This document shows positions 4,044 through 56,486 of a stretch of DNA of 56,486 bases, in pieces; the stretch's first letter is position 1; every line of letters starts with the position of its first letter. The notes beneath the pieces were generated by a model, which was not told the origin of the DNA, searched no databases, and saw nothing but the letters and a program-made list of their open reading frames with translations. The position numbers and the translations under genes are program-made. Location: assembly GCA_034435135.1 (NCBI GenBank), contig DAOTXU010000393.1, positions 1 through 56,486 of the forward strand, in the 5' to 3' direction. The DNA comes from Anaerolineae bacterium. Lineage in GTDB: Bacteria > Chloroflexota > Anaerolineae > Aggregatilineales > JAFGMM01.

Positions 4044-4066
4044 CCTGAAACCAGATAAGGAGACGA

Positions 4067-4146
4067 AGAGCCTATCCGAAAAACCGCTCTTGTCGCCTCG
4101 GACAGGGGGCTTAAGCCCTCTGTCCGGGACTCTTCGGATAGGCTCT
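4067..4146. mobile_element. 80-bp MITE-like element with perfect 14-bp terminal inverted repeats AGAGCCTATCCGAA and a central GGACAGGGGGCTTAAGCCCTCTGTCC hairpin
   Basis: Left arm 4067-4080 (agagcctatccgaa) is the exact reverse complement of right arm 4133-4146 (ttcggataggctct). The central near-perfect palindrome is at 4100-4125. The element is non-coding and lies 24 nt after a stop codon. The same 14-mer forms the end of the IS5-family element at 56357. Confidence 0.65.
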
Positions 4147-4256
4147 AAGCCCCTTGTTTGATGACTGAGACAGGCAGGGGTTCTCAGAGCGGGGCGCTGA
4201 TCGCAACAACGTGCAGTCAGCGCCTCGTTTGGCATAAGGTGAAAGCCAGATACGCG

Positions 4257-5117
4257 ATGGCGACGCAGGCTTGGGAAGTCCGCCGGTTGACGCGGGACGA
4301 CATCGCCGGGGCGGTGGCGCTGACCCGGCGCGTGGGCTGGCCGCACGACGAGGCCGACTGGCGTCGCCTGCTCGACTGGGAGCCAGAGGGCTGCTTCTGC
4401 GTCGAGGGCGAGAGAGGGCTGATCGGCGCAGCGACGACGACTACCTACGGCGCGGCGCTGGCCTGGGTCGGGATGATGATTGTAGACCCGGCGCATCGCC
4501 GTCAGGGGGTCGCCTCGGCGCTGATCCAGGCGTGTCTGGAAAGACTGCGCGCGCGCCGCGTGGCGCGGGTGATGCTCGACGCCACCGACGCCGGCCTCCC
4601 CCTGTATCAGCGTTTCGGCTTCCGCGAGCTGTACCGTGTACGGGCATGGCGCGGGCGGGCGACCGAGTTCTTCGGGCCGCGCGCCAAGCGCCTGCGCGCT
4701 GCCGACATGAGCGTGGTGGTCGCCTACGACGAGCAGCGGTTCGGCGCGCCGAGGGCGCGGGTGCTGTTGCGCTTGCAGGCCGAGTTCCCCCGGCTGTCGT
4801 GGGTGGACCGCGACGCGCGCGGGCGGGTGCAGGGCTACCTGCTGGCGCGCGAGCGCGGGGACGAGGTTATCATCGGGCCATGGGTGCACGACTCCCCCTG
4901 GGGCGCGACGGTGCTGCTTGACACGGTCTTAGGCGCGGTGCGCGGGCGCACGGTGCAGATGTACCTGCCCGACCGCAACCTCGCTGCGACCCCGATTGCG
5001 CAGGATCACGCGCTGCACGTGGTCGGGGATACCACGCGGATGATCTGGGGCGAGGCCGACCCGCCCCCTGACGAGCCAAGCGCGCTCTTCGGGGTCGCGT
5101 CGCTGGCGACGGGGTAG
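4257..5117 (+). CDS. GNAT-family N-acetyltransferase with a C-terminal YitH-like extension
   Basis: ORF 4158..5117; ATG 4257 gives MATQAWEVRRLTRDD. Acetyl-CoA binding motif RRQGVASALIQACLERL and LYQRFGFRE are typical of GNAT folds. Confidence 0.75.
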   Translation: MATQAWEVRRLTRDDIAGAVALTRRVGWPHDEADWRRLLDWEPEGCFCVEGERGLIGAATTTTYGAALAWVGMMIVDPAHRRQGVASALIQACLERLRARRVARVMLDATDAGLPLYQRFGFRELYRVRAWRGRATEFFGPRAKRLRAADMSVVVAYDEQRFGAPRARVLLRLQAEFPRLSWVDRDARGRVQGYLLARERGDEVIIGPWVHDSPWGATVLLDTVLGAVRGRTVQMYLPDRNLAATPIAQDHALHVVGDTTRMIWGEADPPPDEPSALFGVASLATG

Positions 5118-5238: not shown

Positions 5239-7005
5239 ATGCACTACAGCGACAAGCCGTGGATCAAGCGTTACGACGCCGGCGTTCCCGCCAGTCTCAA
5301 CTATCCCGACCAGCCCCTTCATGCCTTCCTGACACAGAGCGCCGCCAGATTCCCCGACAACCCCGCCGTCATCACCACCGCGAAGCTGCCGCTCTTTGGC
5401 CGCAAGACCGCCGTCCTCACCTACCGCGAACTTGACCACCTGACCGACGCCCTCGCCGCCGGGCTGGTAGCGATGGGCGTCAAGAAGGGCGACCGGGTCG
5501 CGCTGGTGCTTCCCAACTGCGCCGCGTTTGTGATCGGCTTCTTCGGCGCGCTCAAGGCGGGCGGCGCGGTCGTCGCCGTCAACCCCACCTACCCCGCCAG
5601 CAAGATGCGTGGCGAACTAAACGATGCCGGGGTCGAGCACGTCATCACGCTGAGCCTGTTCTACCCGACCGTCAAGCAAGTCCAGGCGGAGGCCAAAGTC
5701 AGGAACGTGATCGTCGCCAATATTAAGGAGTACCTGCCGCCGCTGGCGCGGTTTCTCTTCACGGTCGCGCGCGAGAAGCAAGAAGGCCACGCGGTCGCTC
5801 TCCAGCCCGGCGACCATTGGTTACAGGACGTTCTCGCCCGCCATGCCGGCCAGAAGCCCAATGTCGCGGTCGCTTCCGCCGACCACTGCATCTTCCAGTA
5901 CACCGGCGGCACGACCGGCATGTCGAAGGCGGCGGTCTCGCCGCATCACGCCCTGGTCGCCAATACGATGCAATGCTGCGCCTGGCTCATGCCCAACAGC
6001 CCCTTGCCGCCCGAAAAGCTGACGTTCCTGGCCGCCATCCCGCTATTTCACGTCTATGGTCTGGTCACGGTGCTGAGCTTCGCCGCGTCGCTCGGCGCGG
6101 GCATGGTGATGGTCCCGGACCCGCGCGACATCGACGAGGTGGTGGAGTGCCTGGAACACTACCGCTGCCACGTCTTTATGGGCGTCCCGGCGATGTACAA
6201 CGCCGTCAACCACCACCCCGACGTGCTCGCCGGCAGGCGCGACCTTTCCTCCATCCTCGTGTGCATCAGCGGCTCCGCGCCGCTGCCGCCACCCACCAAG
6301 TTGCGCTTTGAGGAGATCACGGGGGGGATGTTGCTCGAAGGCTACGGCCTGAGCGAAGCGCCCACGGCCACGCACTGCAACCCGTATAAGGGCGAGAACC
6401 GCACCGGCTCCATCGGCCTGCCCTTCCCCGACGTGGAGTGCCGCATCGTGAGCCTCGACGACGAGGTCACCGACATGCCGGTCGGCGAGATCGGCGAGGT
6501 GGTGCTGCGCGGCCCGCAGTTGATGGCCGGCTACTACCAGATGCCCGACGAGACCGCCAACGCGCTCCGCACCGGCCCGGACGGTAAGCTGTGGCTCTAC
6601 ACGGGCGACATCGGCTACATGGACGCGGACGGCTACTTCTACATTGTGGATCGCAAGAAGGACATGGCGCTCATCGGCGGGTTCAACGTCTACCCGAATA
6701 ACGTCGAGAAGGCGCTGGTGGAACTGCCGCAAATCCGTGACGTGGCGGTGGCCGCAATTCCCCATCCTGATCCGGCCAGGGTCGGACAGGAGGCGTTGAA
6801 GGCGTGGATCGTGCTCAAGCCCGGCGCAACCATCACCGAGGAAGCGATCATCGCGCACGCCCGGACCAGGCTCGCCCCTTACGAGGTGCCCACGCGCTTT
6901 GCCTTCGTGGAGGCATTACCCAAGACACTGGTGGGAAAGACCCTGCGGCGCGAGCTGGTGCGCCTGGAGATGGCAGAGCGAGAACAGGCCGCCGCGCGCA
7001 GGTAG
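5239..7005 (+). CDS. fadD: Long-chain/medium-chain acyl-CoA synthetase (AMP-dependent synthetase/ligase, ANL superfamily)
   Basis: ATG at 5239. AMP-binding motif FQYTGGTTGMSKAA, plus GYGLSEA and YTGDIGYMDADGYFYIVDRKKDM with the terminal lysine region LPKTLVGKTLRR. Confidence 0.9.
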   Translation: MHYSDKPWIKRYDAGVPASLNYPDQPLHAFLTQSAARFPDNPAVITTAKLPLFGRKTAVLTYRELDHLTDALAAGLVAMGVKKGDRVALVLPNCAAFVIGFFGALKAGGAVVAVNPTYPASKMRGELNDAGVEHVITLSLFYPTVKQVQAEAKVRNVIVANIKEYLPPLARFLFTVAREKQEGHAVALQPGDHWLQDVLARHAGQKPNVAVASADHCIFQYTGGTTGMSKAAVSPHHALVANTMQCCAWLMPNSPLPPEKLTFLAAIPLFHVYGLVTVLSFAASLGAGMVMVPDPRDIDEVVECLEHYRCHVFMGVPAMYNAVNHHPDVLAGRRDLSSILVCISGSAPLPPPTKLRFEEITGGMLLEGYGLSEAPTATHCNPYKGENRTGSIGLPFPDVECRIVSLDDEVTDMPVGEIGEVVLRGPQLMAGYYQMPDETANALRTGPDGKLWLYTGDIGYMDADGYFYIVDRKKDMALIGGFNVYPNNVEKALVELPQIRDVAVAAIPHPDPARVGQEALKAWIVLKPGATITEEAIIAHARTRLAPYEVPTRFAFVEALPKTLVGKTLRRELVRLEMAEREQAAARR

Positions 7006-7116
7006 GGGCGGTCCCGATGCCCCAGCGCGCTTGCGCCGTGAAGGCGTTCAGGTTATTGTTAGAACCGAACATAAAAAACGTGAAGATCGTTGACTGCGCC
7101 CTCAGGTCTATGCTTC

Positions 7117-7142
7117 GGACAAGGGGCTTAAGCCCCTTGTCC
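7117..7142. repeat. Perfect 26-bp palindrome GGACAAGGGGCTTAAGCCCCTTGTCC (REP/MITE core copy)
   Basis: ggacaaggggctt and aagccccttgtcc are exact reverse complements. The copy lies 112 nt after the fadD stop. Flanks (aggtctatgc at 7104, cggatcggtt at 7150) show only weak similarity to the MITE arms. Confidence 0.7.
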
Positions 7143-7177
7143 AGGGTCGCGGATCGGTTACGCACCTTCAAGTCTAT

Positions 7178-10100
7178 GTGCAGGTGAACGAAGTGGCTGG
7201 TCGGACGGCGCGCAAAGTCTATCAACTTGAGCATCTTTATCACGGCTCTTTTGTTGAAGCCGGGCGACCGATTGGCACACCGCAACTCATCGCCTACTCC
7301 CCCGGCGTCGAAGTGGGGCAGTGGAAGGAGTGCCGCAGCCTGGCGCCCGTCACTCCCGCCGGCGATCTGGAAGTCAGCGGCGCCGACTCCGACGCCGTCG
7401 GCCTTTTTCGGGGCAAGAGCGTTGACTCGATCATCGCGCACGCGCAGCGCAACTGGGCTGAAGACGGGGTGAGCAACCCGACCACGGTTCACTACCTGCT
7501 TGCGCCCGCCTCCGTCGCCGAGGTCCTGGTCGATAACCTGAAAGGTCTCTCGCAGCGGCTCGACAAGAAGATGCCGACCTTCCCCACCCTCGACAGCAGC
7601 CTTCGCTCCTTTACCCTCATCGCCCCAGACCCGCTCAAACCGCGACAGCGCGTGGCCGCCCTCACCACCTTGCTGAGCACGTGCGCTAACGACGCCCGCA
7701 CGGTCCGGGGGTTGCTGGCCGCCGTCGCGCTGGAGTGCCCGCTCGCCATCGTCAATTGCCCCGCACCGCTCGACGCGCGGCTTGACTTCATTCAGGGTTT
7801 GCTGGCCTTGCTGCCGCCGCCCGCGCGCGCCCGCGTGAGCTTCGTCACCAACGTGGAGCCGAGCGCGCACTGTCCCGCGCTCATCAGGTTTCTCGCGCAG
7901 GCCAGGCCCTCCGCCGACGACCAGGTTTTCGACTGGGCCGAGGCCAGGCTCCTGACCGAGCCGCTGAAAAGCCCATACAGCGCGTTCGCCATCGGCCAGA
8001 TGCAACTGGACCCGGTCGCGTTGCTCAGACAACTGGACGGCCTGGCGGACGCCACGCAACATCACCTGGCGTCCCGGCCGCTCTCCGAAGCGCTCGCCGA
8101 GGTCTCCCGCCGCGCCGTGATGGACATCGCCCTCGCCGAGGGCCAGCCTATCGACCGGCAAGCGGTGAGCGATCTGCTTAAGGCCGACCCGACGCTCAAG
8201 GGCCAACTGCGCGCCGACTACGCCAGCTACCTCCTGCGCCTGACGCTCTCGCTCGACGAGCCGGAGACCGCCGACGCGCTCATCCCTCTGCTCGATGCGG
8301 ACCGATCCCTGGCGGTGGCGTTGTTCCGGCAGCTTGACCTAGCCGCGCAAGACGGCCAGGCGCAGGCGGCCTATAACATTCTCAGGCGATGGCTGACCGA
8401 AAGGCCCATCATGGCCGAGGCGCTGCCGCGCGCGCTCGGTCGCGTCGCGCTGGCTTACGCGCGGGAACTCGCCAAGACCGAGTCGCCGCAAGCTGTCGCT
8501 GTGCTGTTCGAGGAATTGGCGCGCCTCCCCGTCGTCTTGGACCCGAAGCCCGTGCGCCAGATGACGCAGGGCGCGTTGCCGCTGGCGCGCCAGGATCAGC
8601 GCCTCGCGGCGGCTACGCTCTGCCTGGCTGCGCAATACCTGGAAGCCGGCGACTTCGACAGCCTGCTGACCGACCCCGTGTTTGTCGGGCAACTGCCCAG
8701 GCCGGTGCAGAACGCCCTCTTTCACCTCAAGCCGGAGAAGCCGCTTGAACGCCCAACCCAGGGCCTGCTGGTCCGCGCCTCCGAGTCGCTCGGCCCCGGC
8801 GGCGACCTGGCGCTGGCCCGCCTGGCCGAGCAGGCGGTGGTCATCGACCGCCACGATCTGGTGGACCTGCCGGTGCTCGAAGCGCTGCTGGCGCTGGCCC
8901 GGTCCGGGCGGGCTGCGCGCTTCGTGCAGGTGCTTCAGCACACCGTCTGGTCGCTGGCCCGCTCCGATGTGTTCGCCACCCTCCCCGACCCCGCCCCATT
9001 CCTCGCGGCGCAAACCCTGCTCACCCTGGACCTGCCCGCCGACCTGGCGCAACTGTTGCTCCATTATCAGGCTCAACTCTACAGCGGCCACCGGCGCGAG
9101 GACTTCCGCCTGCTGGTCAGCGAGTTGTTCCAAAAGACTCCGGCCAGCGTCGAGCAGGCGTTGCGGGCGCTTCAGAGCATGGAGAACATCGAGCCGCCTA
9201 TCGACCACACGGCGCTGGCGCTGGCGTATCGCGGTGCCCTCCTTGCCAACGACTGGAGTCCTGCTACCGAGCCGGCGGTTGACCGCCTGATCGACATGCT
9301 GAACCAGCGCCCCGAACTGGCGGCGGTGGTCGGCTATCCCTTTGTCGCCGACCTGCTCCGTCACGTGGCGGGCCGCAAGCACAAGACCGGCGTGATGCGC
9401 ATCATCGGGCCGCTCTTTGACCGGCTGCCGGAGGAAACCGCCGAGACCGCGCCAATTTTGCGCAAGGTGTGGCCTGTGCTGGCGCAAGACCCCGATACGC
9501 GCGAGGCGGCTATCGATCTCCTGCGCGTCCACGCCCGCCACGTCCCTATGGAGCAGGCCGAACGCCTGGTGCGCGTCTTTGCTGGCGAGCGCGCCGCCGA
9601 GGAGCGCGAGGCCCTCATCGCGTGCCTGGCGCTACGCCCGATCTTCGATGACCGCGAGTTTCTCCTGCTCGCCGAAGAGGTCAAGATCGCCGCCGATTTC
9701 TTCAGCGACCTGCTCCTCACCTTTGAACTCAACAAGCCGCCCGCCCCCAAACGGCTTGTCAGCGAGATCGACTCGCTGGGCGGCAGCCTCTCCCGCGACG
9801 AAGCGCTGATGCTGGCGAAGCAAGCCCTGGCCCTGGCAAGCCACCTTGAACAGATGGGCGATCCCCGCAACCGGAGCGACGAAGCCGCGCTCCTCGCCAA
9901 CAAGGCCATGCCCCGGACCGCCCTCGACTTCCTGCGCTGGCTGGGCGGCCAGTTCTCCGGGGGCGAGCGCCGTCTGCGCCGGCTGGAGGCGGAAGCGCCG
10001 CCCCATGCCTTCGGCAACCGCTCCGGCCCCGTCCTGTACCGGGAGATTGACCTCATCGCCAATCTGCTGGGCAGCCTGTTGCGCGCCTTCCCCCCCGGCA

Positions 10101-10378
10101 ACCCGCCCAAGCTGACCCTGGGAGCGATGCAAGCCGAAATCCAGAGCCGCTGGAAACGCCTGCGTCTCTACGAGCAGCGCCAACTGCAAGGCACACTCGC
10201 GCAGGACAGCCAGACCCTTGCCGCGTTCATCAGCCGGATCGCCGAGACCGGCGGCAGCAAGAGCTTCCTGGGCGCGGACGTCGCCGAGCAGGTTGAGGCG
10301 GGCAAAGTGCCGCCGCGCTCGGTTATCGATGCGCTGCGCTGGGTGAGTGGCTTCTATGCCGGCAGGCATCGTCGTTAG
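7178..10378 (+). CDS. Large (about 1066 aa) cytoplasmic Leu/Ala-rich all-helical protein of unknown function
   Basis: Single uninterrupted ORF with coding-like composition and no TM segments or signal peptide. GTG 7178 is the first possible start; the exact start is uncertain. I recognise no catalytic motif. Only the N-terminal about 50 aa (YQLEHLYHGS...PQLIAYSPGV) is reminiscent of anything known (see findings). Confidence 0.6.
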   Translation: MQVNEVAGRTARKVYQLEHLYHGSFVEAGRPIGTPQLIAYSPGVEVGQWKECRSLAPVTPAGDLEVSGADSDAVGLFRGKSVDSIIAHAQRNWAEDGVSNPTTVHYLLAPASVAEVLVDNLKGLSQRLDKKMPTFPTLDSSLRSFTLIAPDPLKPRQRVAALTTLLSTCANDARTVRGLLAAVALECPLAIVNCPAPLDARLDFIQGLLALLPPPARARVSFVTNVEPSAHCPALIRFLAQARPSADDQVFDWAEARLLTEPLKSPYSAFAIGQMQLDPVALLRQLDGLADATQHHLASRPLSEALAEVSRRAVMDIALAEGQPIDRQAVSDLLKADPTLKGQLRADYASYLLRLTLSLDEPETADALIPLLDADRSLAVALFRQLDLAAQDGQAQAAYNILRRWLTERPIMAEALPRALGRVALAYARELAKTESPQAVAVLFEELARLPVVLDPKPVRQMTQGALPLARQDQRLAAATLCLAAQYLEAGDFDSLLTDPVFVGQLPRPVQNALFHLKPEKPLERPTQGLLVRASESLGPGGDLALARLAEQAVVIDRHDLVDLPVLEALLALARSGRAARFVQVLQHTVWSLARSDVFATLPDPAPFLAAQTLLTLDLPADLAQLLLHYQAQLYSGHRREDFRLLVSELFQKTPASVEQALRALQSMENIEPPIDHTALALAYRGALLANDWSPATEPAVDRLIDMLNQRPELAAVVGYPFVADLLRHVAGRKHKTGVMRIIGPLFDRLPEETAETAPILRKVWPVLAQDPDTREAAIDLLRVHARHVPMEQAERLVRVFAGERAAEEREALIACLALRPIFDDREFLLLAEEVKIAADFFSDLLLTFELNKPPAPKRLVSEIDSLGGSLSRDEALMLAKQALALASHLEQMGDPRNRSDEAALLANKAMPRTALDFLRWLGGQFSGGERRLRRLEAEAPPHAFGNRSGPVLYREIDLIANLLGSLLRAFPPGNPPKLTLGAMQAEIQSRWKRLRLYEQRQLQGTLAQDSQTLAAFISRIAETGGSKSFLGADVAEQVEAGKVPPRSVIDALRWVSGFYAGRHRR

Positions 10379-10450
10379 GACCTATGCCAAAAAGCCCAGA
10401 GGGCTTAAGCCCCCAGTCCGAAGCCACCAGAGCGGCTTTTGATAAGCCCT
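10377..10450. mobile_element. Degenerate MITE copy overlapping the stop codon of the 1066-aa gene
   Basis: aggacctatgccaaaaagc resembles the left arm agagcctatccgaaaaacc. The core gggcttaagccc is at 10401-10412. agagcggcttttgataagccct resembles the inverted right arm. Confidence 0.45.
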
Positions 10451-51870: not shown

Positions 51871-51931
51871 ACAACTTCCTCTCGCCGGTAGGCCGCTCTT
51901 TGAATCTTTCCGAACCGAAAGAATCTGATTA

Positions 51932-51955
51932 GACAGAGGGCTTAAGCCCTCTGCC
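51932..51955. repeat. Copy of the palindromic element (gacagagggcttaagccctctgcc)
   Basis: 24-bp palindrome with one mismatch and a GGCTTAAGCC core, 12 nt downstream of the minus-strand stop at 51967. Confidence 0.55.
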
Positions 51956-51966
51956 CAGAACCTTGT

Positions 51967-52746
51967 TTACCGAAGCTTCGCGCGCATCCGGTCCAACTCG
52001 CCGAAATAGACCTGTGCGCTCACCTGTCTCTTCACCTGATCTTGCTCGCGCCGGTCGCGGATGACTTTGGCCGGCGAGCCGACGGCGATACTATCGGGCG
52101 GCAGGTCGCGCGTGACGACCGAGCCGGCCCCTACGACGCTGCCCTTGCCGATGCGCACGCCATCAACCACAATAGCGCCCGCGCCCAACCACACGTCATC
52201 TTCGATGACAATGCCTTCGGCGGTGATGCCCTGGTCCGCGATGGGCGTGTCTGGGTCCTGGAACACGTGGTTCACGGCCAGGATTTGCACCATCGGCCCG
52301 GTGAACACCTTGTCGCCCAGGGTCACGCCGCCTTGCCCCCGGATCACCGTATATTCGCCCAGGAAGCCATTCGCGCCGATGGTGATGCCGGCGTGCGGCA
52401 GATCTCGGAAGTTGAACACGTGCAACATGCACCCGTGCATGATCGTCGTGCCCGCGCCGATGCGGATTCCGTCCGGGCAGGCGTGCAGGTAGACGTGCGT
52501 ATCCAGGTACGCGCCCCTGCCCAGGCGGATGTTCGCCGGCTGGGCCAGGCGCACCCCGTGCTCCACCAGCGGGAGGCCGTCGCTCTTGAGAATGAGTTTG
52601 TAGCCGACCGCGCGCAGCCCGATCCCGACTAGACCGGGGACCCACCCCAGCAACCCCATGATGGTCTGTTCCACCACGTATCGGGGGAGGCTGGTGCTTT
52701 GAGCTTTCAGGTAGTACTTCAACTGCTGCACGACGCCCACGCTCAT
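51967..52746 (-). CDS. Left-handed beta-helix (hexapeptide repeat) O-acetyltransferase with an N-terminal membrane segment
   Basis: ATG 52746. Hexapeptide region VIEDDVWLGAGAIVVDGVRIGKGSVVGAGSVVTRDLPPDSIAVGSPAKVI; N-terminal helix LLGWVPGLVGIGLRAVGY. Confidence 0.8.
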   Translation of the reverse strand: MSVGVVQQLKYYLKAQSTSLPRYVVEQTIMGLLGWVPGLVGIGLRAVGYKLILKSDGLPLVEHGVRLAQPANIRLGRGAYLDTHVYLHACPDGIRIGAGTTIMHGCMLHVFNFRDLPHAGITIGANGFLGEYTVIRGQGGVTLGDKVFTGPMVQILAVNHVFQDPDTPIADQGITAEGIVIEDDVWLGAGAIVVDGVRIGKGSVVGAGSVVTRDLPPDSIAVGSPAKVIRDRREQDQVKRQVSAQVYFGELDRMRAKLR

Positions 52747-52838
52747 CAACCCTTAGTGTCTAAATCACCACTCTCAATCTACCGAATACCTGTAAACTGA
52801 CGGTGAACGCCAGGTGAACAAATGCCCAGCGCCCTTTG

Positions 52839-56278: not shown

Positions 56279-56323
56279 GAGCCTATCCGCAAAAGGTCGG
56301 ACAAGGGCATCAGCCTCTTGTCC
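56279..56323. repeat. Partial MITE/REP copy: left arm gagcctatccgcaaaagg plus hairpin ggacaagggcatcagcctcttgtcc
   Basis: Lies 14 nt after the CE4 stop. The left arm matches the 4067 MITE arm in 11 of 13 positions. No inverted right arm is present before the IS end at 56357. Confidence 0.5.
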
Positions 56324-56356
56324 GGGATGATGGGGACGTTTTGGCGGCAATTTCTT

Positions 56357-56486
56357 AGAGCCTATCCGAATAACCCGGCAGCGCGAAAGGCGATGAGGGC
56401 GCAGGCAAAATGAAGGAAGGCAAGATAGTGCTCCGGTTTCTTCTCCCAGCGCACCAGGAGGCGGCGAAAGCGGTTGAGCCAGCTAT
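56357..56486 (-). mobile_element. Terminal about 130 bp of an IS5-family (IS4/IS5 DDE) insertion sequence, continuing beyond the window
   Basis: Terminal 14-mer agagcctatccgaa at 56357-56370 is identical to the MITE arms. The transposase C-terminus is encoded on the minus strand and ends inside this repeat. Confidence 0.6.
56362..56486 (-). CDS. 3' end (last 40 codons) of an IS5-family DDE transposase; 5' part outside the window
   Basis: My own reverse-strand translation from 56484 reads SWLNRFRRLLVRWEKKPEHYLAFLHFACALIAFRAAGLFG, with TAG at 56362-56364. This NRFRR..(R/Y)(W/Y)EK...NYLA..H.ACA pattern is the conserved C-terminal block of IS5/IS4-type transposases. It is absent from the ORF track because no start lies in the window. 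Confidence 0.65.
   Translation of the reverse strand, partial: SWLNRFRRLLVRWEKKPEHYLAFLHFACALIAFRAAGLFG

Follow-up and report, generated by a model that had tools for sequence, protein, structure and literature searches.

A 14-nucleotide sequence, AGAGCCTATCCGAA, occurs at positions 4067–4080 of the window, the whole 56,486-nucleotide stretch that we analysed, and is followed at 4133–4146 by its exact reverse complement. A third copy lies at 56357–56370, near the opposite edge. This arrangement raises the question of whether the DNA between the two arms is a mobile element and, if so, which transposase moved it. A preliminary description of the locus had proposed an 80-bp MITE whose arms equal the end of a partial IS5-family element at the edge of the window, and an exact search confirmed the three 14-mers on which that proposal was built. 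With up to two mismatches allowed, the window contained four matches to the 14-mer compared to 0.22 expected, and none of 100 shuffled sequences reached four. The window is the entire contig C393 of a 5.0 Mb assembly (517 contigs, 64% GC), and we therefore refer below to the genome as well as to the window.

We consider it highly probable (about 0.88) that the element is a 78-bp non-coding MITE, with 13–17-bp terminal inverted repeats equal to those of a resident insertion sequence (IS) of the IS5 family of about 920 bp and with a core unrelated to that IS. The earlier interpretation is thus supported, with small corrections that are given where they arise.

Structure of the element and its copies in the window

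Throughout the genome, GAGCC was preceded in nearly every case by TAA or TTA, which places the true terminus at GAGCC and assigns the outer A and T of the two 14-mers to the target site. Although the identification as a MITE stood, its length had to be revised, as the mobile unit spans 78 bp (4068–4145, GAGCC...GGCTC) and the fourteenth base of each arm is part of a T(A/T)A target. This unit was recovered on the minus strand with a genome-wide nhmmer profile (79.3 bits, E = 7e-22), its profile orientation being opposite to that of the upstream gene, and was assigned to the older of two subfamilies, A. The left terminal inverted repeat, GAGCCTATCCGAA (4068–4080, plus strand), equals the opening 13 nt of the IS repeat, and the right one (4133–4145, minus strand) is its exact reverse complement, giving the window copy 13 exact bp of terminal repeat. 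Between them lies a GC-rich hairpin (4097–4128), one of the genomic copies of the palindrome GGACAGGGGGCTTAAGCCCCCTGTCC, in which a stem of 14 bp is closed by the loop TTAA. The predicted fold of the 78-bp unit pairs the arms into a long stem around the 14-bp hairpin (−49.5 kcal/mol, z = −7.1). The unit is too small for any open reading frame.

The flanks of the window copy are imperfect. The trinucleotide on the right, TAA (4146–4148), is the target duplication, and GAA on the left (4065–4067) is its decayed form. The right flank continues with GCCCCTTGT, which looks like one half of an older hairpin. Excision of the MITE in silico yielded CCAGATAAGGAGAC-TAA-GCCCCTTGT, a weak hairpin (10.7 bits); it is suggestive, at the level of sequence, that this copy may itself have inserted into a hairpin loop.

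Degenerate copies elsewhere in the window were scored with the same genome-wide nhmmer search. Degenerate arms had been described around three palindromes. Two of these are decayed MITEs. One is a two-armed element of about 72 bp at 10378–10449 on the plus strand, flanked by TTA and TCA (match 10381–10443, model 4–72, 26.5 bits, E = 2e-5); the other is a decayed 76-bp MITE at 56279–56354 on the plus strand (match 56279–56346, model 1–69, 35.3 bits, E = 4e-8), which begins 13 nt past the stop of a polysaccharide deacetylase gene (56265). The third, at 7104–7163, consists of a perfect 26-nt palindrome (7117–7142) with one recognisable decayed arm (match 7111–7158, model 3–52, 33.2 bits, E = 2e-7) and begins about 100 nt past position 7005, where the AMP-binding enzyme gene stops. 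The profile also detected a decayed MITE that had been overlooked (51903–51962, E = 2e-4), whose left arm, GAATCTTTCCGAA, agrees with the intact arm at 10 of 13 positions; about 5 nt separate this copy from the 3′ end of gene 51967–52749, which is on the minus strand. At the 1066-aa gene (7178–10378), the TAG stop in the region 10375–10378 is made up of the TA of the TTA flank and the first G of the decayed MITE, so this element overlaps the stop codon.

It had also been suggested that the family occupies the 3′ UTRs of at least four consecutive genes. This was not borne out, since three of the four carry a copy, namely the LysM protein gene (stop 4043), the AMP-binding enzyme gene and the 1066-aa orphan gene (stop 10378), while none follows the GNAT gene at 4257–5117. 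The remaining genes of the window with a copy at the 3′ side are the minus-strand gene at about 51.9 kb and the deacetylase gene at about 56.3 kb.

The resident insertion sequence

The decayed MITE at 56279–56354 is followed by a TTA (56355–56357) that it has in common with an IS end and that is the target site of the IS. The right end of the IS5-family element begins at 56358, on the minus strand, and is broken off by the end of the contig at 56486; its 17-bp repeat occupies 56358–56374. A minus-strand open reading frame (56362–56484), ending ...RFRRLLVRWEKKPEHYLAFLHFACALIAFRAAGLFG*, encodes the last 40 codons of the transposase. Its TAG stop, the reverse complement of 56362–56364, lies within the terminal repeat, exactly as had been described. 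The fragment matched positions 226–257 of the IS5-family model NF033580, and a Pfam search with these 40 residues alone returned no match.

Six contigs of the assembly include about 130 bp of the 3′ part of the transposase gene before they break off and represent right ends, and two others, C490 and C491, hold the opposite end with the start of OrfA, so that left ends were found only twice compared to six right ends. One 17-bp repeat, GAGCCTATCCGAATAAC, starts both types of end, and a TAA or TTA adjoins each of the eight. Three of the six right ends are 99–100% identical to the end in the window and two others are 88–91% identical. Two findings had been named in advance as arguing against a relationship between MITE and IS, an unrelated terminus at the opposite end of the IS and a 14-mer that is a common genomic word. 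The opposite end carries the same repeat, and the 43 genomic occurrences of the 14-mer are confined to the eight IS ends and the ends of short hairpin elements. Similarity of the MITE to the IS covers the first 17 bp, identical to both IS ends, and none was detected beyond them.

The interior of the resident IS is absent from the assembly because contigs shorter than 1.5 kb were dropped; no contig contained it, and the two ends sit on separate contigs. A metagenome scan with the left end retrieved one contig, which extends this end to 400 bp. In that contig (Ga0067045_1080784, L143:1-935) the IS copy is broken after about 400 bp by a different IS, bounded by TTGCTCTGTTGC / GCAACAGAGCAA. The closest relative of the OrfA protein, 92% identical, is encoded on an intact 923-bp IS5-family element with TTA/TTA flanks, perfect 17-bp repeats and a slippery site, GGGGAAAAAAACC. 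The resident left end aligned to positions 1–403 of this relative (88.5%) and the right end in the window to positions 795–923 (86.8%). By these alignments, the two resident ends are collinear with one intact element.

Complete relatives of the IS are 910–923 bp long with TTA/TTA flanks. Their two transposase frames match NF033580 at positions 4–112 and 154–257 (106 and 97 bits), as well as Pfam DUF4096 and DDE_Tnp_1_2. The two frames are joined on an A-run in three relatives (L144, G015 and ISAzo38), and this region is missing from the resident copies. By ISfinder criteria (a length of about 0.9 kb, a 3-bp TNA duplication and ends of the GA/GAG type), the element would presumably belong to the IS427 or IS1031 subgroup. 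By analogy with these relatives, the resident transposase would be an OrfAB DDE enzyme produced through a −1 frameshift on the A-run, which would recognise the MITE repeats as it does its own and insert the MITE into T(A/T)A, duplicating these 3 bp.

Several further IS copies were noted. One complete IS of the same family (L002, G015:C305:5421-6281) has perfect 17-bp repeats and non-matching TCA/TAA flanks; its OrfB contains an additional frame break, and the copy has probably decayed. Two of the eight resident IS ends (window 56279–56374 and C122:117-220) abut a decayed MITE end with a TTA in common, which suggests insertion beside existing terminal repeats. The genome contains a single further IS5-type element, and its repeat, GAAACTATCTCAAAAGGT, is a different one. 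This element was found on C285 (14890–15053), C329, C465, C196, C515 and C510, also at TAA or TTA targets, and its C285 copy lies inside a hairpin loop (ggacaaggggctta|GAAAC).

Transposition, the palindromic core and gene ends

A strict search of the genome for two arms identified 46 elements, of which 36 were exactly 78 bp long. In a broader census with the profile, 383 loci were obtained, comprising 80 two-armed elements, 86 with one arm and a hairpin, and 217 consisting of the hairpin only. Two subfamilies were distinguished. Members of subfamily A, which includes the window copy, share 79% pairwise identity, and those of subfamily B share 96%, with 11 copies being identical; B copies match the IS repeat at 17 of 17 bp in one arm and 15 of 17 in the other.

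The preliminary description had recommended a check for target-site duplications, and these were found as 3-bp T(A/T)A repeats. Identical 3-bp flanks were present at 19 of the 28 subfamily B copies (12 TAA/TAA and 5 TTA/TTA), with no mixed TAA/TTA pair, and TAA and TTA each make up 0.36% of genomic trinucleotides. Three copies have inserted into the TTAA loop of another hairpin. On C269, taking out a nested B copy and one TAA left a complete subfamily A MITE (65.5 bits, model 1–76); on C87, taking out the insert plus one TAA restored a perfect 26-nt palindrome. As read from sequence, these nested insertions are the internal equivalent of an empty site. A precise empty site was not obtained from a relative, as the orthologous spacer in G001, a genome of the same genus, lacks the element and is too diverged to set boundaries; an exact-protein look-up of the flanking gene matched no record. 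From the target duplications and the precise nested insertions we conclude that the family has transposed. Since a B copy is nested in an A copy, B is the younger subfamily; the window copy is part of an old, decayed burst, and subfamily B was amplified recently.

The core of the MITE is a 26-nt GC-rich palindrome with a short spacer, unrelated to the IS, that also occurs alone and within another repeat. The palindrome GGGGCTTAAGCCCC has 185 occurrences in this genome and 30 in G001; of 121 genomes sampled across the order, 19 contain it, mostly in 1–4 copies each. Perfect 24-nt palindromes number 165 in the genome, the one at 7117–7142 of the window being an example. Four variants (GACAAGGGGC, 77 copies; GACAGGGGGC, 48; GACAGTGGGC, 18; GACAGCGGGC, 12) carry compensated changes on both arms around a centre, CTTAAG, that is itself a 6-bp palindrome. 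A repeat of about 170 bp (GGTAGCTCCACAAGATAGCGTGG ... hairpin ... CTCCACGCTAT), common to both genomes of the genus, also has the palindrome in its middle; it lies at C289:10220-10500, C42:5210-5490, C25:560-840 and C18:6900-7180 in this genome and at C28:71500-71730 and C23:598900-599150 in G001. Searches of Rfam with the MITE, with the hairpin and with the 170-bp repeat were all negative.

This distribution bears on a second explanation, in which the 26-nt palindrome is primary, REP-like and spread by other means, and the arms are secondary, for example IS remnants beside hairpins. Such a scheme would accommodate the 217 armless loci, 136 of them bare hairpins with unique flanks, the presence of the palindrome in an unrelated repeat and in G001, which is without arms, and the fact that IS copies do insert in or beside hairpins and MITE ends. 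Y1 transposase genes are present in both genomes as well. However, 36 of 46 copies have a uniform length of 78 bp, identical copies bear different matched duplications, and an entire two-armed unit is nested precisely in another copy. The bare hairpins were also considered as RAYT-type REPs and this possibility was rejected, as GTAG and CGTC tags occurred in 6 and 10 of 272 flanks, respectively, with no conserved flank, and none of the three Y1_Tnp genes of the genome is flanked by hairpins. We therefore regard this second explanation as very unlikely and retain the MITE as the mobile unit. The MITE may have captured the hairpin or may have spread it.

Gene positions were taken from a simple GC3-based gene caller (3,541 genes). 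For elements whose neighbouring gene presents its 3′ end, 30 of 45 two-armed MITEs lay within 30 nt of the stop codon (median 16 nt), compared to 10% of random intergenic placements. When all intergenic copies were included, 30 of 50 (60%) fell within this distance compared to 16% of intergenic T(A/T)A sites (p = 2e-12), and 12 of 50 used the stop codon itself as target compared to 6.6% of such sites (p = 8e-5). TAA and TTA are rare in a genome of 64% GC, which makes TAA stops and hairpin TTAA loops stand out as targets, so that copies would build up at or just past gene ends. The bias exceeds that of the available T(A/T)A sites, and target scarcity thus explains part of it, not all.

Orientation was also biased, with 32 copies in the same direction as the upstream gene and 12 in the opposite direction (p = 0.004). 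An artefact of the target sequence was examined as a cause and rejected, because the bias was similar in copies using a stop codon (18:7) and in those farther downstream (14:5), and the ratio of TAA to TTA among copies located elsewhere was 5:5. Together with the very stable fold, the preference for sites past stop codons and the 32:12 orientation are what would be expected of a conserved structured RNA or terminator that is held at gene 3′ ends by selection and does not move. We give this possibility almost no credence, as the target duplications and nested insertions show mobility, the Rfam search gave no match, and the orthologous spacer in G001 has no element. A role as canonical terminators was rejected separately, since intact copies carry no U-tract and were not flagged in a terminator scan, in which the count equalled that of shuffled sequences. 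Among the 136 bare hairpins, 17 had a T-run of at least four nearby.

A 78-bp transposable unit that lands so close to stop codons may nevertheless affect the 3′ ends of transcripts. One can imagine the MITE as a mobile 3′-end cassette, in which a palindrome already in use at the gene ends of this lineage was captured by IS5-type ends; the cassette would land on TAA stops while leaving them intact, its hairpin would stabilise or end the upstream transcript, and one orientation would for that reason be kept preferentially. This proposal is tentative, and we consider it doubtful.

Distribution among genomes and relation to known systems

Matches to the arm, with at most one mismatch, were counted alongside a control pattern. 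This genome, in which IS ends are present, gave 106 arm matches and 7 control matches. G001 gave 5 and 0, and no homologue of the OrfA of this IS was found in it; two genomes of the same family, G002 and G003, gave 2 and 0 arm matches. Among these four genomes, the arm is amplified only in the one studied here. A lone exact arm in G001 was considered as a trace of the IS and dismissed, being an isolated match in which similarity to the IS stops at 13 bp. The control pattern CCCCGAATTCGGGG is a palindrome in its own right, and its 99 occurrences in G059, another genome of the same order, point to a different palindromic repeat family there.

The 17-bp repeat is found across many phyla, where it bounds IS copies of 910–923 bp flanked by TTA or TAA. 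The same repeat bounds MITEs with different cores (66–67, 146–158 and 264–271 bp) in other Anaerolineae and in Planctomycetota, and G032, which belongs to another family of the order, carries elements that are 78 bp long and agree with ours in both arms and hairpin core. The co-occurrence of amplified arms with the IS in this genome, compared to G001, is consistent with mobilisation in trans, and the MITE was presumably moved by the transposase of the resident IS.

The complete Anaerolineae chromosome SSC4 (CP059258; L045, L049, L058) is relevant to an alternative in which the MITE is real and its family is an orphan or fossil, moved formerly by a lost or visiting relative of the IS or by another IS5-type transposase. 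SSC4 contains 216 matches to GAGCCTATCCGAATAAC, which pair into 66–67-bp MITEs at the loci examined, and an IS5_3-type transposase was not found in the chromosome. These elements have the identical 17-bp terminal repeats and TAA-type flanks seen here, but a different core. As judged from the chromosome sequence they are an orphan family, and such MITEs can therefore persist without a parent. In the genome studied here, the age of the window copy, with its 79% family identity and decayed flanks, would agree with a similar history, as would a resident transposase that is seen only at its ends. However, the 11 identical copies of subfamily B and the 99–100% identity of three of the six IS right ends to that of the window suggest that IS and MITE were both recently active, and the repeat of the other IS5-type element is unrelated. 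This alternative is accordingly an unlikely account of the family, and the resident IS remains the preferred partner. The occurrence of one 17-bp repeat with MITE cores that differ between genomes, one of these families being orphaned, makes this a convenient case for studying the repeated birth of MITEs from one IS.

In type II MITEs, similarity to an IS is limited to the terminal repeats (PMC10969869). As its core is unrelated to the IS, the present element falls into this class, and each sequence-level feature of a type II MITE is found in it. A literature search for the arm sequence found no paper, and one for MITEs of this kind in Chloroflexi, judged by titles, found no description. A clean pair of IS and MITE is now documented for this phylum, and the family accounts for much of the repeat content and the assembly fragmentation of this genome. 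The current understanding of MITEs is unchanged by these results, which provide a clear but ordinary example of a known element type. Its notable trait is insertion on or right after stop codons, as an AT-rich 3-bp target in a GC-rich genome steers insertions to stop codons and hairpin loops.

Type II MITEs of the IS5 family are already known, and include BrickBuilt, MITE293 and MITE700 of Porphyromonas gingivalis and the ATR element of Neisseria, which is paired with ISNme1 (PMC4596501). The unit described here resembles them in that its ends match, exactly or almost exactly, the terminal repeats of an IS5-family IS in the same genome and in that its interior shows no relationship to that IS; like them, it is non-coding, multi-copy and mostly intergenic. 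The present element differs in being far shorter (78 bp), in having a palindromic core that also exists independently in the genome and in its uncultured Anaerolineae host; the duplications of BrickBuilt are irregular, whereas those described here are clean 3-bp T(A/T)A repeats. The closest curated IS to the partner IS is ISAzo38 (IS5 family, plasmid 2 of Aromatoleum aromaticum EbN1), which is likewise about 0.9 kb long and flanked by TAA; its inverted repeats begin GAACCTATCC, and its two frames are separated by a slippery site on an A-run. Its OrfA is only 58.7% identical to that of the nearest relative of the resident IS, and its repeats diverge after position 10.

The location at gene ends recalls QMITE2 of Coxiella burnetii, which resides mainly in 3′ untranslated regions and has truncated, REP-like copies without terminal repeats (PMC10969869). 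Preference for 3′ UTRs and REP-like truncated copies are features of both families, but QMITE2 is about 190 bp long, has 7–9-bp direct repeats and is of other parentage. Unlike those of QMITE2, many of the bare hairpins found here are not decayed MITEs, because G001 has hairpins without any arms. REP elements and the terminator-like small repeats of which SPRITE of Streptococcus pneumoniae is one (PMC3733652, PMC10969869) resemble the present hairpins as short GC-rich palindromes of high copy number that lie just past genes and insert into each other. The bare hairpins differ from them in having neither the GTAG/CGTC tag nor an association with a RAYT and usually no U-tract, and the 78-bp unit differs in having terminal repeats of the transposase type and target duplications.
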